Positions 1,206-14,139 of a DNA stretch of 64,000 nt are shown here, piece after piece. The position numbers were made by a program, and so were the translations under genes. The DNA is from Rhodocyclaceae bacterium (GTDB lineage: Bacteria > Pseudomonadota > Gammaproteobacteria > Burkholderiales > CAIKXV01). A model generated the notes under the pieces. The model was not told the DNA's origin. It worked only from the letters and a program-made list of their open reading frames with translations, and did not search any database. How positions within the stretch are numbered: position 1 is the first letter of the stretch; every line of letters begins with the position of its first letter. The stretch is taken from positions 20,378 to 84,377 of the forward strand of contig JADCHX010000012.1 in NCBI GenBank assembly GCA_020248265.1, given 5' to 3'.

Positions 1206-2450
1206 TCAGCCGGCCTGGTACACCGCACGTGCCGCGTCGACGCCCGCACCGCGGGTGAACCGGTGGTGCTCGCCCGCGAGTACTGCTTCCAGGGCCGCCA
1301 GGGTGGTCAGCACCGCATCGCGGCGCGCGTTGTAGCCCATCGCGCCGATGCGCCAGATGCGTCCGTGCAGCGGACCGAACGAGGTGCCGATCTCGATGTT
1401 GAACTCGTCCAGCATCGCGGTGCGGACACGGTCCCCGCTGACGCCCTCCGGTATCCAGACGCCTGTGACGTTTGGCATCTTGTTCGCCTTGTCGCCGAAG
1501 ATCTTGAGGTTCATCGCCTCTAGGGCTGCGACGATCGCGCGGCTGGCGAGGGCATGTCTTGCGAACACTGCCGCATGGCCCTCCTGCAGGAAGATGCGCG
1601 CGCATTCTCGTGCCGCGTAGAGCATGGAGGTGGCTTCAGTGTGGTGGTTGAGCGCTCGCTCGCTCCAGTAGTCGATGATCATCGCGAGGTCGAAGTAGTT
1701 CGACGCGATGATGCCTCCGGCGCCTGGCTGGTAGTTGGCCGGTCGCAATCCCTCCTCGACGTGGCGGCGCCGCATGATCACCTCGCACAGAGAGTCGGAC
1801 AGCGTGATCGGCGCGATGCCGGACGGGCCCGCGAGGCATTTCTGCAGCGCTCCGGTCACGCAGTCGATCTGCCAGGCTTCGACCGGCAGGGGGGTGCCGC
1901 ACAGCGATGCAGTAGCATCGACCTGGAGCATCACACCGTGGCGCCTGCACAGAGCGCCCAGTTCGGAGAGCGGCTGGAGCATGGTCGTCGAAGTGTCGCC
2001 CTGGCAGCAGGCCAGCAGCTTCGGGGAGAACGCGCGGATCTCGGCTTCGATCAGCGCCAGGTCGAACACCGTGCCCCATTCGGCCTCGATCACCCGCACT
2101 TGCGCGCCGACCCGACGCGCGATCTCGGCCTTCAGCTGGCCAAACCGTCCGAAGCTCGCCACCAGCACACGGTCGCCAGGCTCGACCAGCGACACCATCA
2201 CGGTCTCGATCGCCGAGCGCGCCGTACCGTCGATGCACAGGGTCTGCGCGTTGGACGTCTCGAACACGCCGCGATAGAGATCCTGGGTATCGCGCATGTA
2301 CTGGCGGAACTGGGGGTCGAACTGCCCGAGCAACTGCGCCGACATCGCGCGCAGCACGCGCGGATCTGCGTTGATCGGGCCGGGCCCCATCAGCAGCCGG
2401 GGCAGCGGATTGAGTTCGGACAATGCCTGCGTGGGTATCGAAGGTGACAT
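1206..2450 (-). CDS. Class V PLP-dependent aminotransferase (serine/alanine--glyoxylate aminotransferase type)
   Basis: The 414-aa ORF reads end to end like AGXT/SgaA-type enzymes (NPLPRLLMGPGPINADPRVLRAM...; GALQKCLAGPSG holds the expected PLP-lysine motif). The antisense ORFs over it are GC artefacts. Confidence 0.8.
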   Translation of the reverse strand: MSPSIPTQALSELNPLPRLLMGPGPINADPRVLRAMSAQLLGQFDPQFRQYMRDTQDLYRGVFETSNAQTLCIDGTARSAIETVMVSLVEPGDRVLVASFGRFGQLKAEIARRVGAQVRVIEAEWGTVFDLALIEAEIRAFSPKLLACCQGDTSTTMLQPLSELGALCRRHGVMLQVDATASLCGTPLPVEAWQIDCVTGALQKCLAGPSGIAPITLSDSLCEVIMRRRHVEEGLRPANYQPGAGGIIASNYFDLAMIIDYWSERALNHHTEATSMLYAARECARIFLQEGHAAVFARHALASRAIVAALEAMNLKIFGDKANKMPNVTGVWIPEGVSGDRVRTAMLDEFNIEIGTSFGPLHGRIWRIGAMGYNARRDAVLTTLAALEAVLAGEHHRFTRGAGVDAARAVYQAG

Positions 2451-2708
2451 GGTTCAACCGTGGCGTGGGAAGTTCAGGATACAAGCTGCACCGGACAAGT
2501 GTAGAACAGCGTCGGGCGGATCGGTCGAAATCGGCTTGCGCCCGTGTCGGATGCCAGCCGACGGCACTGGCGCGCGGGGGCCAGGGGACTACAATGGGGG
2601 CGGCCGTCGAGGCAGGGTCCGCAACCTGCGCGATGCCCGTGTCTGCCCGTCACCTCTTCGGCCGTCCATGCCCGACCCTTCCATCCCTTGCTGCCTGGCG
2701 GAGCACGC

Positions 2709-6975: not shown

Positions 6976-7005
6976 ATCACCTGAGCGGGCCGCGCCGGGG
7001 CCGGC

Positions 7006-7599
7006 TCAGCCGTACAGACGACTGTGTTTCGGCACGCGCGCCATCAGGTATTCCATCTGGTCGACGAGGATGCGGCGGTTCTGAAGGATCATATGCTCAT
7101 GCCGGTTGGGCACATACGGCAGGTAGAGCAGCGGCATGCGCGCGGCCTCGGGCGTGCGGTTGTCTTTCTTGCTGTTGCACGCCCTGCAGGCGGTCACCAC
7201 GTTCATCCAGCGGTCTTCGCCGCCGCGCGACAGCGGCACGATATGGTCGCGTGACAGTTCCCGCTCGCGCAGGCGGTCGCCGCAGTACGCACAGACCTGC
7301 CGGTCGCGCACGAACAGCGCTGCGTTGATCAGTGCCGGTTCGCGCCGGAACTCCCTCGCGAACGAGCCCGACCCCTTGATCGCGATGATGCTCGCGGTCG
7401 AGAGTTCGGAGCGCTCTCCAGTGCTGCGCGACAGGCCGCCGTGGTAGGTGCGCACGATGCTGCCGATCGACCATGCCACCTGGTGCTTGGCGTGGTAGGT
7501 GATCGCCTCTTCGACCAGCAACCAGCGACGCGGTATCCCGCCTGGATCGACTTCCAGGATCAGCGGCTCACCTCGGGCGCGACTACCGAATGCAGTCAT
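7006..7599 (-). CDS. HNH endonuclease family protein
   Basis: HNH/zinc motif CAYCG...SRDHIVPLSRGGEDRWMNVVTACRACNSKKDNRTP. Confidence 0.8.
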   Translation of the reverse strand: MTAFGSRARGEPLILEVDPGGIPRRWLLVEEAITYHAKHQVAWSIGSIVRTYHGGLSRSTGERSELSTASIIAIKGSGSFAREFRREPALINAALFVRDRQVCAYCGDRLRERELSRDHIVPLSRGGEDRWMNVVTACRACNSKKDNRTPEAARMPLLYLPYVPNRHEHMILQNRRILVDQMEYLMARVPKHSRLYG

Positions 7600-7696
7600 G
7601 GTTCCCGAACATTAGGAACGATGGCGCGCGATGTCAAGCCGGATCGGCCTGGCAGGCAGGGCAGGGGCTTCGCATGTGGCCTGGCATGACGCCGGC

Positions 7697-7792
7697 TGGC
7701 GGAAGAGAGTGCGAGTCGAACGCACGGAGGACTGGATCACAGCCCTCACCGGGTTTGAAGTCCGGCCGTCCCACCGGGGACGTTTCCCTTCC
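7697..7792 (-). tRNA. selC: tRNA-Sec (anticodon UCA)
   Basis: Hand-folded 96-nt minus-strand RNA: GGAAGGGA-AA-CGTCCC-CGGT-GGGACG-G-CCGGA-CUUCAAA-CCCGG-[23-nt variable arm GAGGGCUG/CAGUCCUC]-GUGCG-UUCGACU-CGCAC-UCUCUUCC-G-CCA. It has the bacterial tRNA-Sec architecture: 8-bp acceptor stem, 6-bp D stem with 4-nt loop, UCA anticodon, long extra arm, 5-bp T stem and encoded CCA. It lies 20 nt downstream of selB. Confidence 0.9.
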
Positions 7793-7812
7793 AGTGCTGC
7801 GCGTGGATTATC

Positions 7813-9765
7813 TCACGCGTCTGGCCGTGCGTCCGTCTGCGCTGCCTCGCGGTAGACGTCGGACACCTTGCGCCGGAGCTTGCGTGCGTCGCCGACGCGC
7901 AACGTCAGCCCTGCGCTGTCGAAGTGTTCGAGGATCTGGATGGCGAGGCTGCGGCCGATGCCCGCCTGATCGCGATACTGCGCTGCATTGAACTGCCCGC
8001 CAGGGACGGCCTGGGCAGTCGCCTCGACCAGCCGTGCGAGCGCCACGATCGCCGTCCGCAGGTAGACGCGCTGCGGGTCGATGCGCACCAGTTCGCCGCG
8101 CTTGATCCGGCGCTGGAGCATGGCCTGCAGGGCCTTCTCGTCGAGTTTCAGCGTGGCGGCAATCTCGCGCACCTGCGGCGGCGCATTCGGGGTCTTCGAC
8201 AGCAGCGGCCGGACCCGCTTCCACATCGCCTCGTCGGCGCTGTTCGCCGCCGCGTCGAAGCCGGGCAGGCGGGCGAGGCCACCGGTGAGCTCCAGCGTGC
8301 GTGCCTGTACTGCATCGCGCAGCACTGCCTGCAGGATCTCGTCGGGCAGCGCGAGGCCCGCATTCTTCTGCAGCACGGCCAGTTCGATGCCCGTTGCCTG
8401 CGGGGATTTCACGTGGAAGCTGCGCACCTCGGCGAGCAGGGCCTCGCGCATCGTGGCGAGCCGGGCGGGCTCGAATGCGCGCCGCGACTCGCGTCCGAGT
8501 ACCTGCAGGCCGGCCGCCTTGTACAGACGCTGAGCGGCCTCGGCGGTGAGGTTGAAGCGGCGCTCGAACAGCGCGACATCGATGCCGGCCGTGGCGTGCG
8601 GCAGCAGGGCCTGAAGCACGTCCGATGGCGCTCCGCCATCGAGCGCCGCCAGTTCCAGCTGGCGCTCGGCGATCCGCCGGCGGCGCGGCGGCGGGAACGG
8701 ATCGATCACATGCCCGCCGCCGATCGTGCGCTGGGCAGAAAAGTCGCGCACGATGAAGCGGTCCCCGGCGATCGCACCGACCGGCTGGTCGAGCACGATC
8801 TGCGCGACCTCTGCGGTGCCCGGCGCGACGGACAGGTCGCGCCGCGTCGACAGGCGGCCGGTGACATCGGCGGTGCCCAGGTGCAGGTGCACCGGCGTCC
8901 AGTGGCGCAGCGGGTTCGCTTCGGTCGCCAGCGCGCGCAGGTGCACGTCGATGCGGCTGGTCGGGGCATGGATGGCGGGATCCACCAGCCACTCGCCCCG
9001 TGTGATCGAGTCTTTCTGCAGGTCGGCGCCGGTGAGGTTGACCGCGCACCGGGCACCGGCCGTCGCCTGTTCCACCGTTCGTCCCTGGACCTGCAGCCCG
9101 CGCACCCGTACGGTGACGCCGGACGGCGACAAAGACAGCGTATCGCCAACCTTCACGCGTCCGGCGAAGATGGTGCCGGTGACCACGGTTCCGCTGCCGG
9201 CCACCGTAAAGCAACGGTCGATCGCGAGCCGGAAGTGCCTGCCTTCGGAAGCCCCCAGCCGCTGGGCCGACAGCCTTGCCACGAGCGTCTCGCGCAGGGC
9301 GTCGACGCCGTCCCCGGTCATTGCCGACACCGCCAGCACCGGGGCGTCGCGCAGCACGGTATCGGCGACCAGCGCGCGCAGTTCCGCGGTCACGGCCTCG
9401 ATCCGCTCGGGTGCGACACGGTCGACCTTGGTGATCACGAGCAGGCCCTGGCGTACGTCGAGCAGGTCCAGGATCGCCAGGTGCTCGCGCGTCTGGGGCA
9501 TCACGCCGTCATCGGCGGCGACCACGAGAAGCACGAAATCGATGCCGGATACGCCGGCGAGCATGTTGCGCACGAAACGTTCATGGCCCGGCACGTCGAT
9601 GAAGCCGATCGCGCTGCCGTCGGGCAGTCGCAAATGCGCGAAGCCGATGTCGATCGAGATGCCGCGCCGTTTCTCCTCGGGCAGGCGATCGGTGTCGATC
9701 CCGGTGAGGCGCTTGACGAGCAGCGTCTTGCCGTGGTCGATATGGCCTGCGGTGGCAACGATCAT
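7813..9765 (-). CDS. selB: Selenocysteine-specific translation elongation factor SelB
   Basis: The N-terminus [43 protein letters not shown] carries the G1-G4 GTPase motifs ([12 protein letters not shown]). A long C-terminal winged-helix region follows. The start is trimmed from 10083 to ATG 9765. Confidence 0.9.
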
Positions 9766-9772
9766 CGCCGGG

Positions 9773-11158
9773 TCAGGCCGCCAGTAGCGGCAGTTGCGCG
9801 ACCAGCACCGCCTCGCCGTCGGATTCGAGGCAGCGCAGGTCGAGCAGCAGGGCGTTGTCGTGGATGCGGCCGACCACCGGCCGCGGCAGGGCGCGTAGCC
9901 GTAACGCGAGGCGGTCCAGGTGGCCGCCCCGGCCGGCGAACCGGATCGCGAGGGCGGCCGAGGGCAGGCGGTCGACAGGCAATGAGCCGCTGCCGATCTG
10001 GCTCGAACAGTCGACCACCTCGACCGTCGCGCGTTCGCCGAGTACCGCGGCGAACGCGGGTTGCAGGCGCATCGCGCAGGCACGGATATCCTCGCGCGGC
10101 CGCGTCAGCAGCCGCAGCGCCGGCAGCCGCTGGCGCAGCCGGTCGGGATCGAGGTACAGACGCAACGTGGCTTCCAGTGCGGCGATGGTCATCTTGTCGA
10201 GGCGCAGCGCCCGCTTGAGCGGGCATTTCCGGATGCGGTCGATCAGCGCCTTGCGGCCGACGATCAGTCCGGCCTGCGGACCGCCGAGCAGCTTGTCGCC
10301 GCTGAAGGTGACCACGTCGGCGCCGTCGGCCAGTGCTTCCTTCGGCGTCGGTTCGTGCGGCAGACCATAGGGAGTCAGATCGACCAGCGAACCGCTGCCG
10401 AGGTCCTCCAGCATCGGCAACTCGTGCGCGTGGGCGATGCCGGCGAGGGTCCTGGTGTCGACCGTCGAGGTGAAGCCCTCGACCTGGTAGTTGCTCGGGT
10501 GCACGCGCATCAGGGCGGCGGTCGAGCGCCCGATCGCCTCTTCGTAGTCGCCGCCATGGGTGCGGTTGGTGGTTCCCACTTCGCGCAGCTTGCAGCCGGC
10601 ACGGCTCATGATGTCGGGCATGCGGAATGCACCACCGATCTCGATGAGTTCGCCGCGCGACACGATGACCTCGCGGCGCGCCGCCAGCGCGGTCAGCGTC
10701 AGCAGTACCGCAGCCGCATTGTTGTTTACCAGAGTCGCGGCTTCGGCGCCGGTGATCCGGCACAGCAGCTTCTCGACGTGGCTGTCCCGTTCGCCGCGCC
10801 GGCCGGTAACGAGATCGAACTCGAGGTTGGACGGCTGGCCCATCACGGCCATCACTGCCTCGATTGCCTCCGGGGCCGCCCACGCGCGGCCGAGGTTGGT
10901 GTGCAGCACCGTGCCGGTCAGGTTCAGCACCGGCATCAGCCCGGGCCGGGTGTCCTGTTCCAGCAGTCGTTCACAATCGTCGAAGAGGGTGGCCGGTTCG
11001 AAGACCGTGGCCGTCGCCCGAAGCCGTTCGATTCCGGCGCGCACGGCATCCAGCGCGAGCGAGCGGCCATGCCGTTCGATCAACCGCTGGCCCTCGACCG
11101 ATCGCAGCAGGCGGTCGACCGAGGGCGGATGGTATGTTGCAGCGGCTGGATCGTTCAC
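9773..11158 (-). CDS. selA: L-seryl-tRNA(Sec) selenium transferase SelA
   Basis: SelA-typical strings [40 protein letters not shown] and [13 protein letters not shown] (PLP lysine). The start is assigned to GTG 11158, 8 nt after the upstream stop. The track ORF extends to 11392 without homology. Confidence 0.9.
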
Positions 11159-11166
11159 GGCATGGT

Positions 11167-11943
11167 CTAGTCTTCCCAGACCTTTTCGGGCAGCGGCAGT
11201 CCCTTCAGGTCTTCCGCCGTCAGCGGCTGGTCGGGCTCGATACCCATCCTCGACAGCAGGAACTGAAGCTGCCGGGTGTGCTGGGCCGAATGCCAGGCGC
11301 AGCGCTCGAGCAGGACGGACAACGGCTGCGCCCCGAAATAGGTCTGCACGACCTGCTTCGCTGTGGGGTCTGTCTTCTCGTGCTGCGCCCACCAGTCGTG
11401 AACCCGCTGGCGTACCTCGGCCGCATAGTCGGCCACCTGCTGCGGGCGCGTGATCGAATCCGCCGGCGGTTTCACCGGCTGTTCGATCGTGAACTCGATC
11501 CCCTGGACTGCTTCCAGCATGGCTTCCTGGATGCGGACCAGATGGTGCGCCAGTTCGCGATAGGTACGTTTGCGGCCGGACATCGGCAGCAGTTCATTGA
11601 ACTTGTCGAGGGGTAGCTGCGGCACGAAGCGCTGTGCCCCGGCCAGTACCATCTCTGCGCGCTGGACCAGCTGGGCAGGGGTGAGTGCCGGCCCGCCGTC
11701 GAACTGCAGGCCGAGGAACTTCGCCACTTCAGGGATCACCTGGCCGAGTACCCACTGGTCGCCGCGCGCGACTACCGGCGTGGTCTTGGCACCGAGCGCC
11801 GTCAGTTCTGCAAGCCCTGCGGGGTCGTTGAAGATATCGATGATGTCGAATTCGATATCGAGTCGCGAAAGAAACTCTTTCGTCCGGAGGCAGCTCGTTC
11901 AGCCGGGCTTGGTGAAGAAGCGGATGCGTTGTGCCTGGGCCAT
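11167..11943 (-). CDS. Putative selenoprotein: glutaredoxin-fold domain (P-G-U-T-S-C, U = in-frame TGA at 11899-11901) fused to a DinB-fold domain
   Basis: ATG 11943 lies 5 nt downstream of GGGAGG. Translation gives [70 protein letters not shown]. It then runs in frame (204 nt = 68 codons) into track ORF 11167-11739, which is DinB-like (HHLVRIQEA..., [10 protein letters not shown]). The TGA occupies the first Cys position of a Grx CxxC motif. selA/selB/selC follow directly. The ORF track reports only the part downstream of GTG 11739. Confidence 0.7.
11866..11882 (-). promoter_or_regulatory. Candidate bacterial SECIS hairpin
   Basis: The RNA 5'-CGAAAGA-GUU-UCUUUCG-3' forms a 7-bp stem (or a 6-bp stem with an AGUUU loop). 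It starts 16 nt after the UGA and has G-U in the apical loop. A possible lower helix pairs GAG with CUC. Folded by eye only. Confidence 0.5.
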
Positions 11944-12144
11944 CGTGACCTCCCTCGATCGGTTGCGCCGCGCTATGCCGCGACGAGTCCGATATTTTAG
12001 TCCATCGTGGCGTTCATCGTGCGGTCATCGTCGGCCGCAATTGCAGGACGGCTGCTCACCGTGGATGCCGGCGGGGCCGGACGTATACTCTGGGATGACC
12101 GCGGATGCACTGCGGCGTCCATCGACGACAAGGGGGGAGTGATC

Positions 12145-12948
12145 ATGCGCAGGAACCGTATCAAGCAGCTCTGGCGCGAAGGAAAGCCGGCAGTCGGCGG
12201 ATGGCTGTCGATCCCCCACTGCTTCGCGGCCGAAGTGATGGCGCATACCGGCCTCGACTGGCTGTGCATCGACATGCAACACGGCTGCATCGATTACTCC
12301 GATGCGGTTCCGATGCTCACCGCGATCTCCACCACCGACGTGACACCGCTGGTGCGCGTGCCGTGGAACGAGCCGGCGATGATCATGAAGGTCCTCGACG
12401 CAGGGGCCTATGGCGTGATCGTGCCGATGGTCAGCAATCGCGCCGAGGCAGAGCGGGCGGTGGCGGCCTGCCGCTACCCGCCGCGCGGCATGCGCAGCAA
12501 CGGACCGAACCGGGTGCTTTACTACGCGGGTGCCGATTACCAGAAGCATGCGGACGAGGAAGTCGCCTGCGTGGTGATGATCGAGACGCCGGAAGGCATC
12601 GAGAAGATGGACGAGATCATTTCGACGCCCGGGGTCGACGCCGCCTACATCGGGCCGACCGATCTTGCGCTCGCGCTCGGCCTGCCACCGGTGATGGACA
12701 ATGACGAGCCCAGGCATGTCGCCACGGTCGATGCGATCCTCGCGTCGTGCAAGCGCCACGGCGTGGTCGCCGGCATCCACACCAACAGCTCGAAGTTCTC
12801 GCAGCGCTACATCGACCAGGGCTTCGGCATGGTGATGCTGGCACCCGACCGTGTTGCGATGTCGAACTACGTGAAGGCCGAGGCCGCGCGTCTGACCGGC
12901 TGGTCGCCGATGAAGCCGGTCGGGGCTCCCTCTGGTGGTGGCTACTAG
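12145..12948 (+). CDS. HpcH/HpaI family class II (pyruvate) aldolase
   Basis: An AGGGGGGAG RBS precedes ATG 12145. Family strings include GGWLSIPHCFAAEVMAHTGLDWLCIDMQHG, VRVPWNEPAMIMKVLDAGAYGVIVPMV, YPPRGMRS and IETPEG. The start is trimmed from 12007. Confidence 0.8.
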   Translation: MRRNRIKQLWREGKPAVGGWLSIPHCFAAEVMAHTGLDWLCIDMQHGCIDYSDAVPMLTAISTTDVTPLVRVPWNEPAMIMKVLDAGAYGVIVPMVSNRAEAERAVAACRYPPRGMRSNGPNRVLYYAGADYQKHADEEVACVVMIETPEGIEKMDEIISTPGVDAAYIGPTDLALALGLPPVMDNDEPRHVATVDAILASCKRHGVVAGIHTNSSKFSQRYIDQGFGMVMLAPDRVAMSNYVKAEAARLTGWSPMKPVGAPSGGGY

Positions 12949-12966
12949 GCCGGCGCGGAGCCATCG

Positions 12967-14139
12967 ATGTTCCTGTACGAACACGACGCGAAGTCGCTGC
13001 TCGAGACGTTCGGCGTCGCAGTGCCGCAGGGTTGCTGGGTAGGCGCCGATGGCGCGCTCGAAGGCGCGATGCCTGTGGGCCCGCTGATCGTCAAGGCACA
13101 GGTGGCCGCCGGTGGGCGCGGCAAGGCCGGGGGCATCCGGCATGCCGCCGATGGCGTGGCTGCGCTCGAGGTGGCGCAGGCCCTGCTGTCGGTGCCGCTC
13201 GCGGGGCTCGCGGTCGCCGGCTGCCGGGTCGAGCAGGCGATTGCCGGCGCGGCCGAAGTCTATCTGTCGCTCACGCTCGATGCATCGCGCGCGCAGGTCC
13301 AGGTGCTGGCGTCCGACCATGGCGGGGTCGACATCGAATCGGCCGCGCCCGACGCGCTGGTGCGAGAGTGGGCTCCGATCGATGCGGCTGCGATCGCTGC
13401 AGCGGTGGGCCGCGCGGCGCAGCGGCTGTCGCCGGCGAACCGCGAGGCGGTGGCCGATGCCGGCGAACGGCTGGCTGCGGCGTTCGTCGGGCTCGATGCA
13501 CAGGTGGTCGAGATCAATCCGCTGTTCGTGCTGCCCGCAGGCGGGCAGGCGCGATGGCTGGCGGCCGATGCGAAGCTGATTACCGACGACAACGCCCTGT
13601 ACCGGCAACCGGTCCTGTGCGGGCTGCTCGAGCGCGCGGCCGCGCGCTACCCGGAAGCGGCGCGCAAGTGGCGGCATGGCTGCGACTACGTGGTGGTCGA
13701 TCCGGCCGGCGAGATCGCGCTGCTGACCACCGGGGCCGGCCTGAGCATGATGCTGATCGATGAACTGCGTGCGCAGGGACTGCATCCGTACAACTTCCTC
13801 GACGTACGCACCGGAGGGCTGCGCGGCGATCCGCAGCGGCTGGTCGACGTGCTCGGATGGATGCGCGACGGCGCGCAGGTGCGCGTGCTGCTGGTGAACA
13901 TCTTCGCAGGGATCACCCACCTCGGTGAATTCGCGCGCCTGCTGGTGCAGGCGCTGGACGCGGTGCCGGAGTTCAGCGTGCCGGTGGTCGCACGGCTGGC
14001 CGGTCCGGGTTTCGGCGAGGCGGTCGAGATTCTCGGTGCGCGGGGCGTCAAGGTCGAGACCGACCTGGCGCGGGCGATCGACGCGGTACGCCGCGAACTC
14101 GCCTCCGCAGGCGTCCTGGCGCCCGGGGTGCTGCAGTGA
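12967..14139 (+). CDS. Succinyl-CoA synthetase beta-subunit-like ATP-grasp protein (acid--CoA ligase, ADP-forming, beta chain)
   Basis: SucC-like N-terminus MFLYEHDAKSLLETFGVAVPQG, followed by KAQVAAGGRGKAGG, EINPL and NIFAGIT. The substrate is unknown. Confidence 0.75.
   Translation: MFLYEHDAKSLLETFGVAVPQGCWVGADGALEGAMPVGPLIVKAQVAAGGRGKAGGIRHAADGVAALEVAQALLSVPLAGLAVAGCRVEQAIAGAAEVYLSLTLDASRAQVQVLASDHGGVDIESAAPDALVREWAPIDAAAIAAAVGRAAQRLSPANREAVADAGERLAAAFVGLDAQVVEINPLFVLPAGGQARWLAADAKLITDDNALYRQPVLCGLLERAAARYPEAARKWRHGCDYVVVDPAGEIALLTTGAGLSMMLIDELRAQGLHPYNFLDVRTGGLRGDPQRLVDVLGWMRDGAQVRVLLVNIFAGITHLGEFARLLVQALDAVPEFSVPVVARLAGPGFGEAVEILGARGVKVETDLARAIDAVRRELASAGVLAPGVLQ

Follow-up and report, generated by a model that had tools for sequence, protein, structure and literature searches.

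The window considered here, a stretch of 64,000 nucleotides (nt) from contig JADCHX010000012.1 of a Rhodocyclaceae bacterium, carries on its minus strand a gene whose predicted product joins a glutaredoxin (Grx) domain to a DinB-type domain, and whose reading frame is crossed by a TGA triplet that is probably decoded as selenocysteine (Sec). The subject of this analysis is a small hairpin located downstream of this triplet, which is very probably part of a bacterial Sec insertion sequence (SECIS) element. All the features described lie on the minus strand, and nucleotides of the messenger are numbered with the U of the UGA as nt 1. The gene and the elements read within it and just ahead of it are the following:

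11167..11943, minus strand: Grx-DinB selenoprotein gene of 258 codons, from ATG (11943-11941) to TAG (11169-11167), by translation
11949..11956, minus strand: putative Shine-Dalgarno-like sequence GAGGGAGG, read from the sequence and ending 5 nt 5' of the ATG
11899..11901, minus strand: in-frame UGA, codon 15, predicted Sec codon, by translation and alignment with Cys homologues
11883..11898, minus strand: 16-nt spacer ACGAGCUGCCUCCGGA, encoding T-S-C-L-R and the first base of a Thr codon (ACG)
11866..11882, minus strand: 17-nt upper stem-loop of the putative SECIS element, proposed from folding, synonymous-site invariance in Sec forms, absence in Cys forms, pair counts, and fit to the bacterial SECIS (bSECIS) model

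The TGA at 11901-11899 is the single interruption of the 258-codon frame. The residues around it, G-U-T-S-C, form a redox motif of the U-x-x-C type, and full-length Cys homologues have the first Cys of their CTSC motif in the TGA column. Pfam detects a Glutaredoxin domain (PF00462) at residues 9-63 (E=1.2e-11, 45.1 bits against a cut-off of 22.9) and a DinB_2 domain (PF12867) at residues 122-226 (E=1.4e-8, 35.6 bits against a cut-off of 24.8), and the product appears to consist of an N-terminal glutaredoxin/NrdH-like domain followed by a C-terminal DinB/YfiT-like four-helix bundle. An AlphaFold2 model of a Cys homologue (P0014; predicted local distance difference test score 93.6) presents the same Grx/NrdH-like fold joined to a DinB/YfiT four-helix bundle. 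In Foldseek searches with this model, the closest structures to the bundle were 6iz2, 2p1a, and 1rxq (target-normalised TM-scores of 0.65-0.84), and those closest to the Grx domain were 3zit and 7c10. Three residues that are invariant in the homologue alignment, His134, His218, and His222, presumably constitute the metal-binding His triad of the DinB family. All 13 matches of the protein to NCBIfam models fell under the models' own cut-offs, including those to the glutaredoxin-like selenoprotein models (Uxx-star and HUGP/GUXX-star), the best of which, NF041212, scored 33.1 bits against a cut-off of 66.

The hairpin downstream of the UGA comprises a 5' arm CGAAAGA (11882-11876), a GUU loop (11875-11873), and a 3' arm UCUUUCG (11872-11866), followed by CGACUC, and its sequence and its distance of 16 nt from the UGA are exactly those given in a first-pass annotation that had nominated it as a SECIS element. 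An alternative drawing has six pairs closing an AGUUU loop; the loop G-U falls at nt 27-28, and the hairpin codes for (T)KEFLS, with the last two bases of the Thr ACG codon opening the stem. The ensemble favours this fold, as the annotation had anticipated: both the minimum-free-energy (MFE) and the centroid structures of the 62-nt segment that follows the UGA contain the hairpin, its five core pairs reach 0.85-0.98 in ensemble probability in all sequence contexts tried, and the loop-closing pair A26-U30 reaches 0.64-0.74. Among the 1372 TGA triplets of the window, against a background of 67% G+C, seven (0.5%) have, 16-37 nt further 3', a stem of seven or more Watson-Crick pairs with a G[G/U] loop, and 10.5% have one under relaxed terms (six or more pairs, G-U allowed). 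No copy of the 17-mer with up to two substitutions was found outside this gene in 0.96 Mb of fetched loci, and an Rfam cmscan of positions 7000-13000 (E up to 10) found the tRNA-Sec described below and nothing at 11866-11901. As a motif the hairpin is only moderately rare, and on its own it is weak evidence; because folding energy and motif rarity give little, the case for a SECIS element depends on comparative evidence, which is strong.

A protein search returned 937 relatives at E <= 1e-10. The 13 closest (P0001-P0013, 58-92% identity) are called as truncated proteins of about 152-237 aa from start codons 3' of the TGA; their coding regions correspond to positions 11167-11780 of the window, with starts inside the glutaredoxin fold. 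Those calls that are named read 'DinB family protein', and one 277-aa call has an unrelated N-terminus. Relatives at 49% identity or less are full-length, at about 255 aa, and carry Cys at the position of the window's TGA. In the genome loci, retrieved via protein patterns in the DinB domain, the TGA and an identical 17-mer are found in all 13 orthologues (73-97% protein identity), which come from metagenome-assembled genomes of freshwater Burkholderiales and Betaproteobacteria. Another 13, more distant genome homologues (41-45% identity) have TGA in ten cases and TGC in three; the 17-mer is identical in nine of the ten TGA forms, and in the tenth (L024) it differs by a single A-to-G change, which turns one pair into G·U. 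A metagenome scan with the codon-degenerate pattern P-G-TGA-x-S-C-L-R-x-K-E-F-L, which leaves synonymous sites unconstrained, produced at least 120 matches, and nearly all of those listed encode this Grx-DinB fusion, at about 255 aa. One further locus, L085 (392-640), has a PG-TGA-SSCLRAKEFLS start and the identical 17-mer in a frame that stops after 79 aa with no DinB domain, and may encode a Sec-glutaredoxin that stands alone or owe its early stop to a frameshift or faulty assembly.

With at least 144 TGA-containing homologous loci against 12 TGC forms, the nature of the triplet itself can be weighed. Gene callers report 'DinB family' proteins of 202-209 aa whose starts lie 3' of the TGA, as would be expected if the triplet were a true stop in a pseudogene or split gene, with the DinB domain translated from an internal start and the hairpin either irrelevant or acting as an attenuator. 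However, the 14 codons 5' of the TGA are conserved as protein, with synonymous variation, the TGA takes the place of the catalytic Cys in the aligned Grx motif, and the short calls begin inside the Grx fold, at or just before a 'TTPVVARGD' segment. Furthermore, the TGA stays in frame across all these independent loci and is recurrently linked to selA, selB, or selC, so that a genuine stop appears extremely improbable. The public calls would instead reflect a systematic 5' mis-annotation, the true products being predicted selenoproteins of about 255 aa with a glutaredoxin domain.

The comparative evidence for the hairpin comes mainly from codon choice, which can be compared between Sec and Cys forms of the same peptide. 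The Sec set comprises 125 unique forms, from the genome loci and the metagenome matches listed. Within the hairpin, Lys is encoded by AAA in 109 of these 125 (32% elsewhere in the same genes), Glu by GAG in 124 (64% elsewhere), Phe by TTT in 111 (18% elsewhere), and Leu by CTT in 88 (7% elsewhere), and the codon that follows KEFL is TCG in 118; binomial probabilities for the hairpin codons range from 1e-23 to 1e-71. In the spacer of the same sequences, codons are scrambled: Cys is encoded by TGC in 55 forms and TGT in 27, and six Leu and six Arg codons are in use. Because the spacer Cys, Leu, and Arg codons are scrambled in the very sequences that hold the hairpin codons constant, conservation of the hairpin cannot be attributed to phylogenetic inertia, and because its synonymous sites vary freely, the 16-nt segment after the UGA behaves as a spacer and not as a conserved structure. 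The Cys forms (11 unique, namely 8 fitting CxSCLRxKEFL, out of 9 more that were fetched, plus L018, L020, and L021) write T-K-E-F-L as ACC-AAG-GAR-TTC-CTS, with AAG in 11 of 11, TTC in 9, GAG in 6, and CTT in one, and pair at two or three of the seven stem positions; Fisher probabilities for Sec against Cys codons are 1e-4 to 3e-9. The contrast extends beyond the four codons: window-type Sec forms invariably have Ser (UCG) after KEFL and an NCG codon before Lys, where Cys forms have S, T, A, K, or R and ACC, respectively. The first-pass annotation had noted that pairing conserved beyond codon constraints would be informative, and TGA forms do keep it, in 13 of 13 orthologues and, among the matches listed, in 82 of 118 sampled sequences; the pairing thus appears to be conserved beyond what coding demands and to be tied to the TGA. 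If so, the element constrains coding strongly, fixing four rare codons and even a Ser residue.

These data bear directly on the possibility that the hairpin is a by-product of the codons for T/A-K-E-F-L-S, and that the real signal lies elsewhere, for instance in a downstream repeat or a longer structure. Every family member, whether Sec or Cys, conserves K-E-F-L, AAA/UUU and GAG/CUU are naturally complementary codon pairs, and the conserved hairpin of one group of Sec forms (class B, below) sits further 3'. In addition, the window contains a second, perfect inverted repeat of 8 bp, GAUAUCGA…UCGAUAUC, at nt 43-69 (11833-11859, minus strand), with an 11-nt loop, which was considered as an alternative SECIS. 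Yet Cys forms with an identical peptide use AAG GAR TTC CTS and form no stem, the codons of the Sec forms are rare in their own genes, where the joint expectation for AAA-GAG-TTT-CTT is about 0.003, and it is only in Sec forms that the Ser codon is held at UCG and the codon preceding Lys at NCG. The downstream repeat, in turn, is rejected as a recoding signal because it pairs equally in both kinds of gene (mean 5.73/8 in Cys forms against 5.85/8 in class A Sec forms); its position and its 11-nt loop also lie outside the SECIS model, and it is a by-product of repeated (I/V)-D codons. A coding by-product is hence largely refuted and retains a very low probability.

Sec forms do not all carry the window's stem. 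Sorted on 118 unique 57-mers (alignment A3, ungapped), the matches listed fall into three classes. Class A, with the window-type hairpin, accounts for 82 of the 118, and its variants are mild: AAG turns A24-U32 into G·U, and TTC loses only the loop-closing A26-U30, leaving a 6-bp stem with an AGUUC loop, in keeping with the N1-G-[G|U]-N-N2 consensus described below. In class B (30 of 118; among loci L029-L138, e.g., L031:1323-1379), the class A stem is missing and a different hairpin, UCGGUCC-GUG-GGAUCGA (UCGGUCCGUGGGAUCGA), occupies nt 34-50. Pairs are kept in 96.2% of class B cells, with changes from U-A to C-G (n=3), from U-A to G-C (n=1), and from G·U to A-U (n=3); breaks are confined to the loop-closing pair, CGU is fixed in the loop, and the main subclade has an extra hairpin at nt 15-31. 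Double compensatory changes, absent from the class A stem, occur in this hairpin. Class C (6 of 118; L030, L081, L086, L105, L121, and L147) has CUAAGG-AGUU-CCUUGG at nt 20-35, with a 6-bp stem and the loop G at nt 27, and L045 looks intermediate between classes. RNAalifold found no consensus structure for all 118 unique Sec sequences, because three mutually exclusive hairpins are mixed in them, and class-wise folding recovers the hairpin of each class. An apical-loop G-U is common to the three, at nt 27 in classes A and C and at nt 41 in class B, and since all of them share it, a SelB-type recognition rule is supported. The distribution of the three hairpins suggests that the SECIS element has been replaced or moved within one protein family.

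Directly 3' of the Grx-DinB gene lie genes for the Sec-decoding machinery:

9773..11158, minus strand: selA, L-seryl-tRNA(Sec) selenium transferase (Pfam SelA, E=9e-164, and Se-cys_synth_N; start and stop checked)
7813..9765, minus strand: selB, Sec-specific elongation factor of 650 aa (Pfam GTP_EFTU, Beta-barrel_SelB, SelB-wing_2, and SelB-wing_3)
7697..7792, minus strand: selC, tRNA-Sec with anticodon UCA (ARAGORN; Rfam RF01852, 72.9 bits against a gathering score of 47, E=4.9e-14)

The likely selA start is a GTG at 11158, 8 nt past the selenoprotein stop codon, and the four genes form a tight same-strand cluster (7697-11943) with gaps of 8, 7, and 20 nt, in which the Grx-DinB gene is apparently co-transcribed with selA, selB, and selC. 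The order gene-selA(-selB-tRNA-Sec) is kept in all 13 orthologous genome loci, and in another 13 loci of more distant relationship selA, selB, or tRNA-Sec lies no more than a few kb away; among class B loci, only one carries selB. In L028, the gene between the Grx-DinB gene and selA was considered as a selD candidate and rejected, since on visual inspection it runs on the opposite strand and encodes a TctC-like binding protein.

On the evidence as a whole, it is highly likely that SelB binds the window hairpin as the upper stem-loop of a bacterial SECIS element. In the proposed mechanism, a ribosome arriving at the UGA, codon 15, would have the hairpin 16 nt further 3', just outside the mRNA entry channel, where it would be bound by the C-terminal winged-helix domain of the SelB encoded two genes 3'. 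SelB·GTP would bring Sec-tRNA(Sec), made by the product of the adjacent selA on that of the adjacent selC, and the UGA would be read as Sec, which would serve as the attacking residue of the U-T-S-C redox motif. Contact of SelB through loop G27-U28, Sec insertion at the UGA, and a redox role for the Sec residue are what we infer from sequence comparison.

A different mechanism could in principle use the same hairpin, which might drive read-through without SelB, by pausing the ribosome, slowing the release factor, or stabilising the mRNA, while SelB recognises something else or nothing specific. Structures 3' of stop codons can stimulate recoding in general, and, with the stem conserved, only the loop G-U so far suggests a specific protein contact. 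This G-U is nevertheless kept in three classes with different stems, GAG is nearly universal in Sec forms (124 of 125) as compared with Cys forms (6 of 11), and class B loops invariably contain CGU; the conservation of the loop G-U therefore fits a SelB contact and not a mere pause. Moreover, the same operon encodes a full SelB with winged-helix domains at its C-terminus. Read-through of this kind is accordingly judged very unlikely, and recognition of the hairpin by SelB remains the preferred interpretation.

The window hairpin also fits the published bacterial SECIS model in loop, stem, and spacing. The bSECIS model (bSECISearch), as summarised in Fig. 2A of a 2026 inventory of prokaryotic selenoproteins (PMC13188914), has a stem of 4-16 bp, a loop of 3-9 nt, and a UGA-loop spacing of 16-37 nt, with a G in the first two loop positions that is usually followed by G or U; in its N1-G-[G|U]-N-N2 form, N1 and N2 may pair. 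The first-pass annotation had stressed the G-U in the loop and the location of the hairpin within coding sequence; both are confirmed and fit the model. The window stem-loop lies inside the open reading frame (ORF) just 3' of the UGA, has an upper stem of 6-7 bp and a UGA-loop distance of 23 nt (GUU) or 22 nt (AGUUU), and, drawn with the AGUUU loop, conforms to N1-G-U-N-N2 with A·U as N1·N2 (PMC13188914). The minimal SECIS of E. coli fdhF is a 17-nt upper stem-loop located 11 nt from the UGA (PMC11431864); the window hairpin, like it, spans 17 nt inside an ORF and has a G-U in its apical loop, and the two are of comparable predicted stability (-5.2 kcal/mol for the window 17-mer and -4.2 kcal/mol for the fdhF minihelix). 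The fdhF loop is GGUC as against GUU or AGUUU in the window, and the stem sequences are unrelated.

The base of the hairpin is less uniform. The first-pass annotation had suggested a possible lower GAG/CUC helix beneath it, which can be formed in the window but is not conserved, being broken in the close orthologues L009, L010, L012, and L013, and two other lower stems, UGCCU/AGGCA and UGAAG/CUUCG, are present in part of class A only. UGAAG (alignment A3, columns 1-5) can pair with CUUCG (columns 51-55) in about half of class A, and in the window (11901-11897 with 11851-11847) four pairs at most are possible. Such pairing would place the UGA inside a basal helix, an arrangement that we take to occur also in E. 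coli fdhF.

Several observations weigh against assigning the window hairpin to a SECIS element. The window's clade shows no conserved lower stem. The fdhF SECIS stem has a bulged U, and the window stem, in contrast, is perfect, with no bulge. The 16 nt that separate the window hairpin from the UGA likewise differ from the 11 nt of fdhF (PMC11431864). The folding energy of the 62-nt segment is unexceptional (z=+0.59), with 141 of 200 shuffles folding equally well or better. The isolated 17-mer is AU-rich and weak and, at -5.2 kcal/mol, stays above the bSECIS cut-off of MFE <= -7.5 kcal/mol given in the inventory (PMC13188914); the cut-off is reached only when non-conserved flanking pairs are counted, which brings nt 1-45 to -9.7 kcal/mol. 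About a quarter of the sampled Sec forms, those of class B, lack the window-type stem. The compensatory covariation that the first-pass annotation had looked to could not be demonstrated: no class A stem pair shows a true double compensatory change, because the stem is nearly invariant, and cells scored as 'both sides changed' in the class A pair counts were rejected as compensation, since the stem in them belongs to the other classes. The binomial and Fisher tests on the hairpin codons treat related sequences as independent, and the Cys control, at 11 unique sequences, is small and drawn from a separate clade. Lastly, selD was not seen among the 20 neighbouring window ORFs scanned.

The gene and its setting also differ from those of described selenoproteins. 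Sec-glutaredoxin (PF00462, UxxC) is listed as an experimentally verified selenoprotein family in Table 1 of the inventory (PMC13188914). The window protein resembles it in having a Grx domain that passes the Pfam cut-off, with Sec first in U-x-x-C, and departs from it in the fusion of this domain to a DinB/YfiT-type domain of about 170 residues. In turn, its C-terminal domain, as modelled in the Cys homologue, has the four-helix bundle of DinB/YfiT proteins (DR0053, 6iz2; YfiT, 1rxq), whereas the solved members matched are stand-alone, with neither a Grx fusion nor Sec. As regards the operon, selA-selB-selC operons with a neighbouring fdhA have been described in the Alpha-, Beta-, and Gammaproteobacteria, and those of the Betaproteobacteria adjoin fdhA as their only selenoprotein gene (PMC1794560). 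The window shares with these operons a compact selA-selB-selC arrangement with one selenoprotein gene alongside, but here the companion is the Grx-DinB gene, directly 5', and not fdhA, which was not seen among the 20 neighbouring window ORFs scanned.

The Grx-DinB selenoprotein is absent from the text of the 2026 inventory and from the part of its table that was covered (PMC13188914), has no NCBIfam model, and did not appear in a literature search, which returned no paper linking DinB with a selenoprotein in this sense. The odds are roughly even that these genes represent a widespread family of selenoproteins, as yet undescribed, whose N-terminal motif is U-x-S-C, and that the family serves as the Sec companion of a self-contained gene-selA-selB-selC module in freshwater Burkholderiales in place of formate dehydrogenase, and within which the SECIS has been replaced or relocated (nt 27 against nt 41). 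The SECIS mechanism itself is ordinary and known, and because it is textbook, confirming the element would mainly correct annotation. The family is common in soil and freshwater metagenomes, as judged from the scan matches, and a Grx-DinB gene in a selA-selB-selC operon where earlier surveys had fdhA bears on the spread of the Sec trait. Three hairpin solutions at two distances from the UGA in one protein family would offer a clean comparative system in which to study what spacing and sequence SelB requires and, if correctly read, amount to a natural experiment on the distance to which a bacterial SECIS can shift from its UGA.

No other convincing selenoprotein candidate, with an in-frame TGA and coding-like flanks, was found in the window, and the remaining neighbours are ordinary metabolic genes. 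About 5 kb from the tRNA-Sec, an ORF at 1209-2453 (minus strand) encodes a class V aminotransferase (Pfam Aminotran_5, E=9e-22); Aminotran_5 is, we assume, the fold family of NifS, cysteine desulfurase, and selenocysteine lyase, and a link of this ORF to selenium metabolism is speculative. Just 3' of the tRNA-Sec, an ORF at 7009-7611 (minus strand) encodes an HNH endonuclease (Pfam HNH_5, E=3e-17), which could hint at a mobile or integrated element beside the Sec module.

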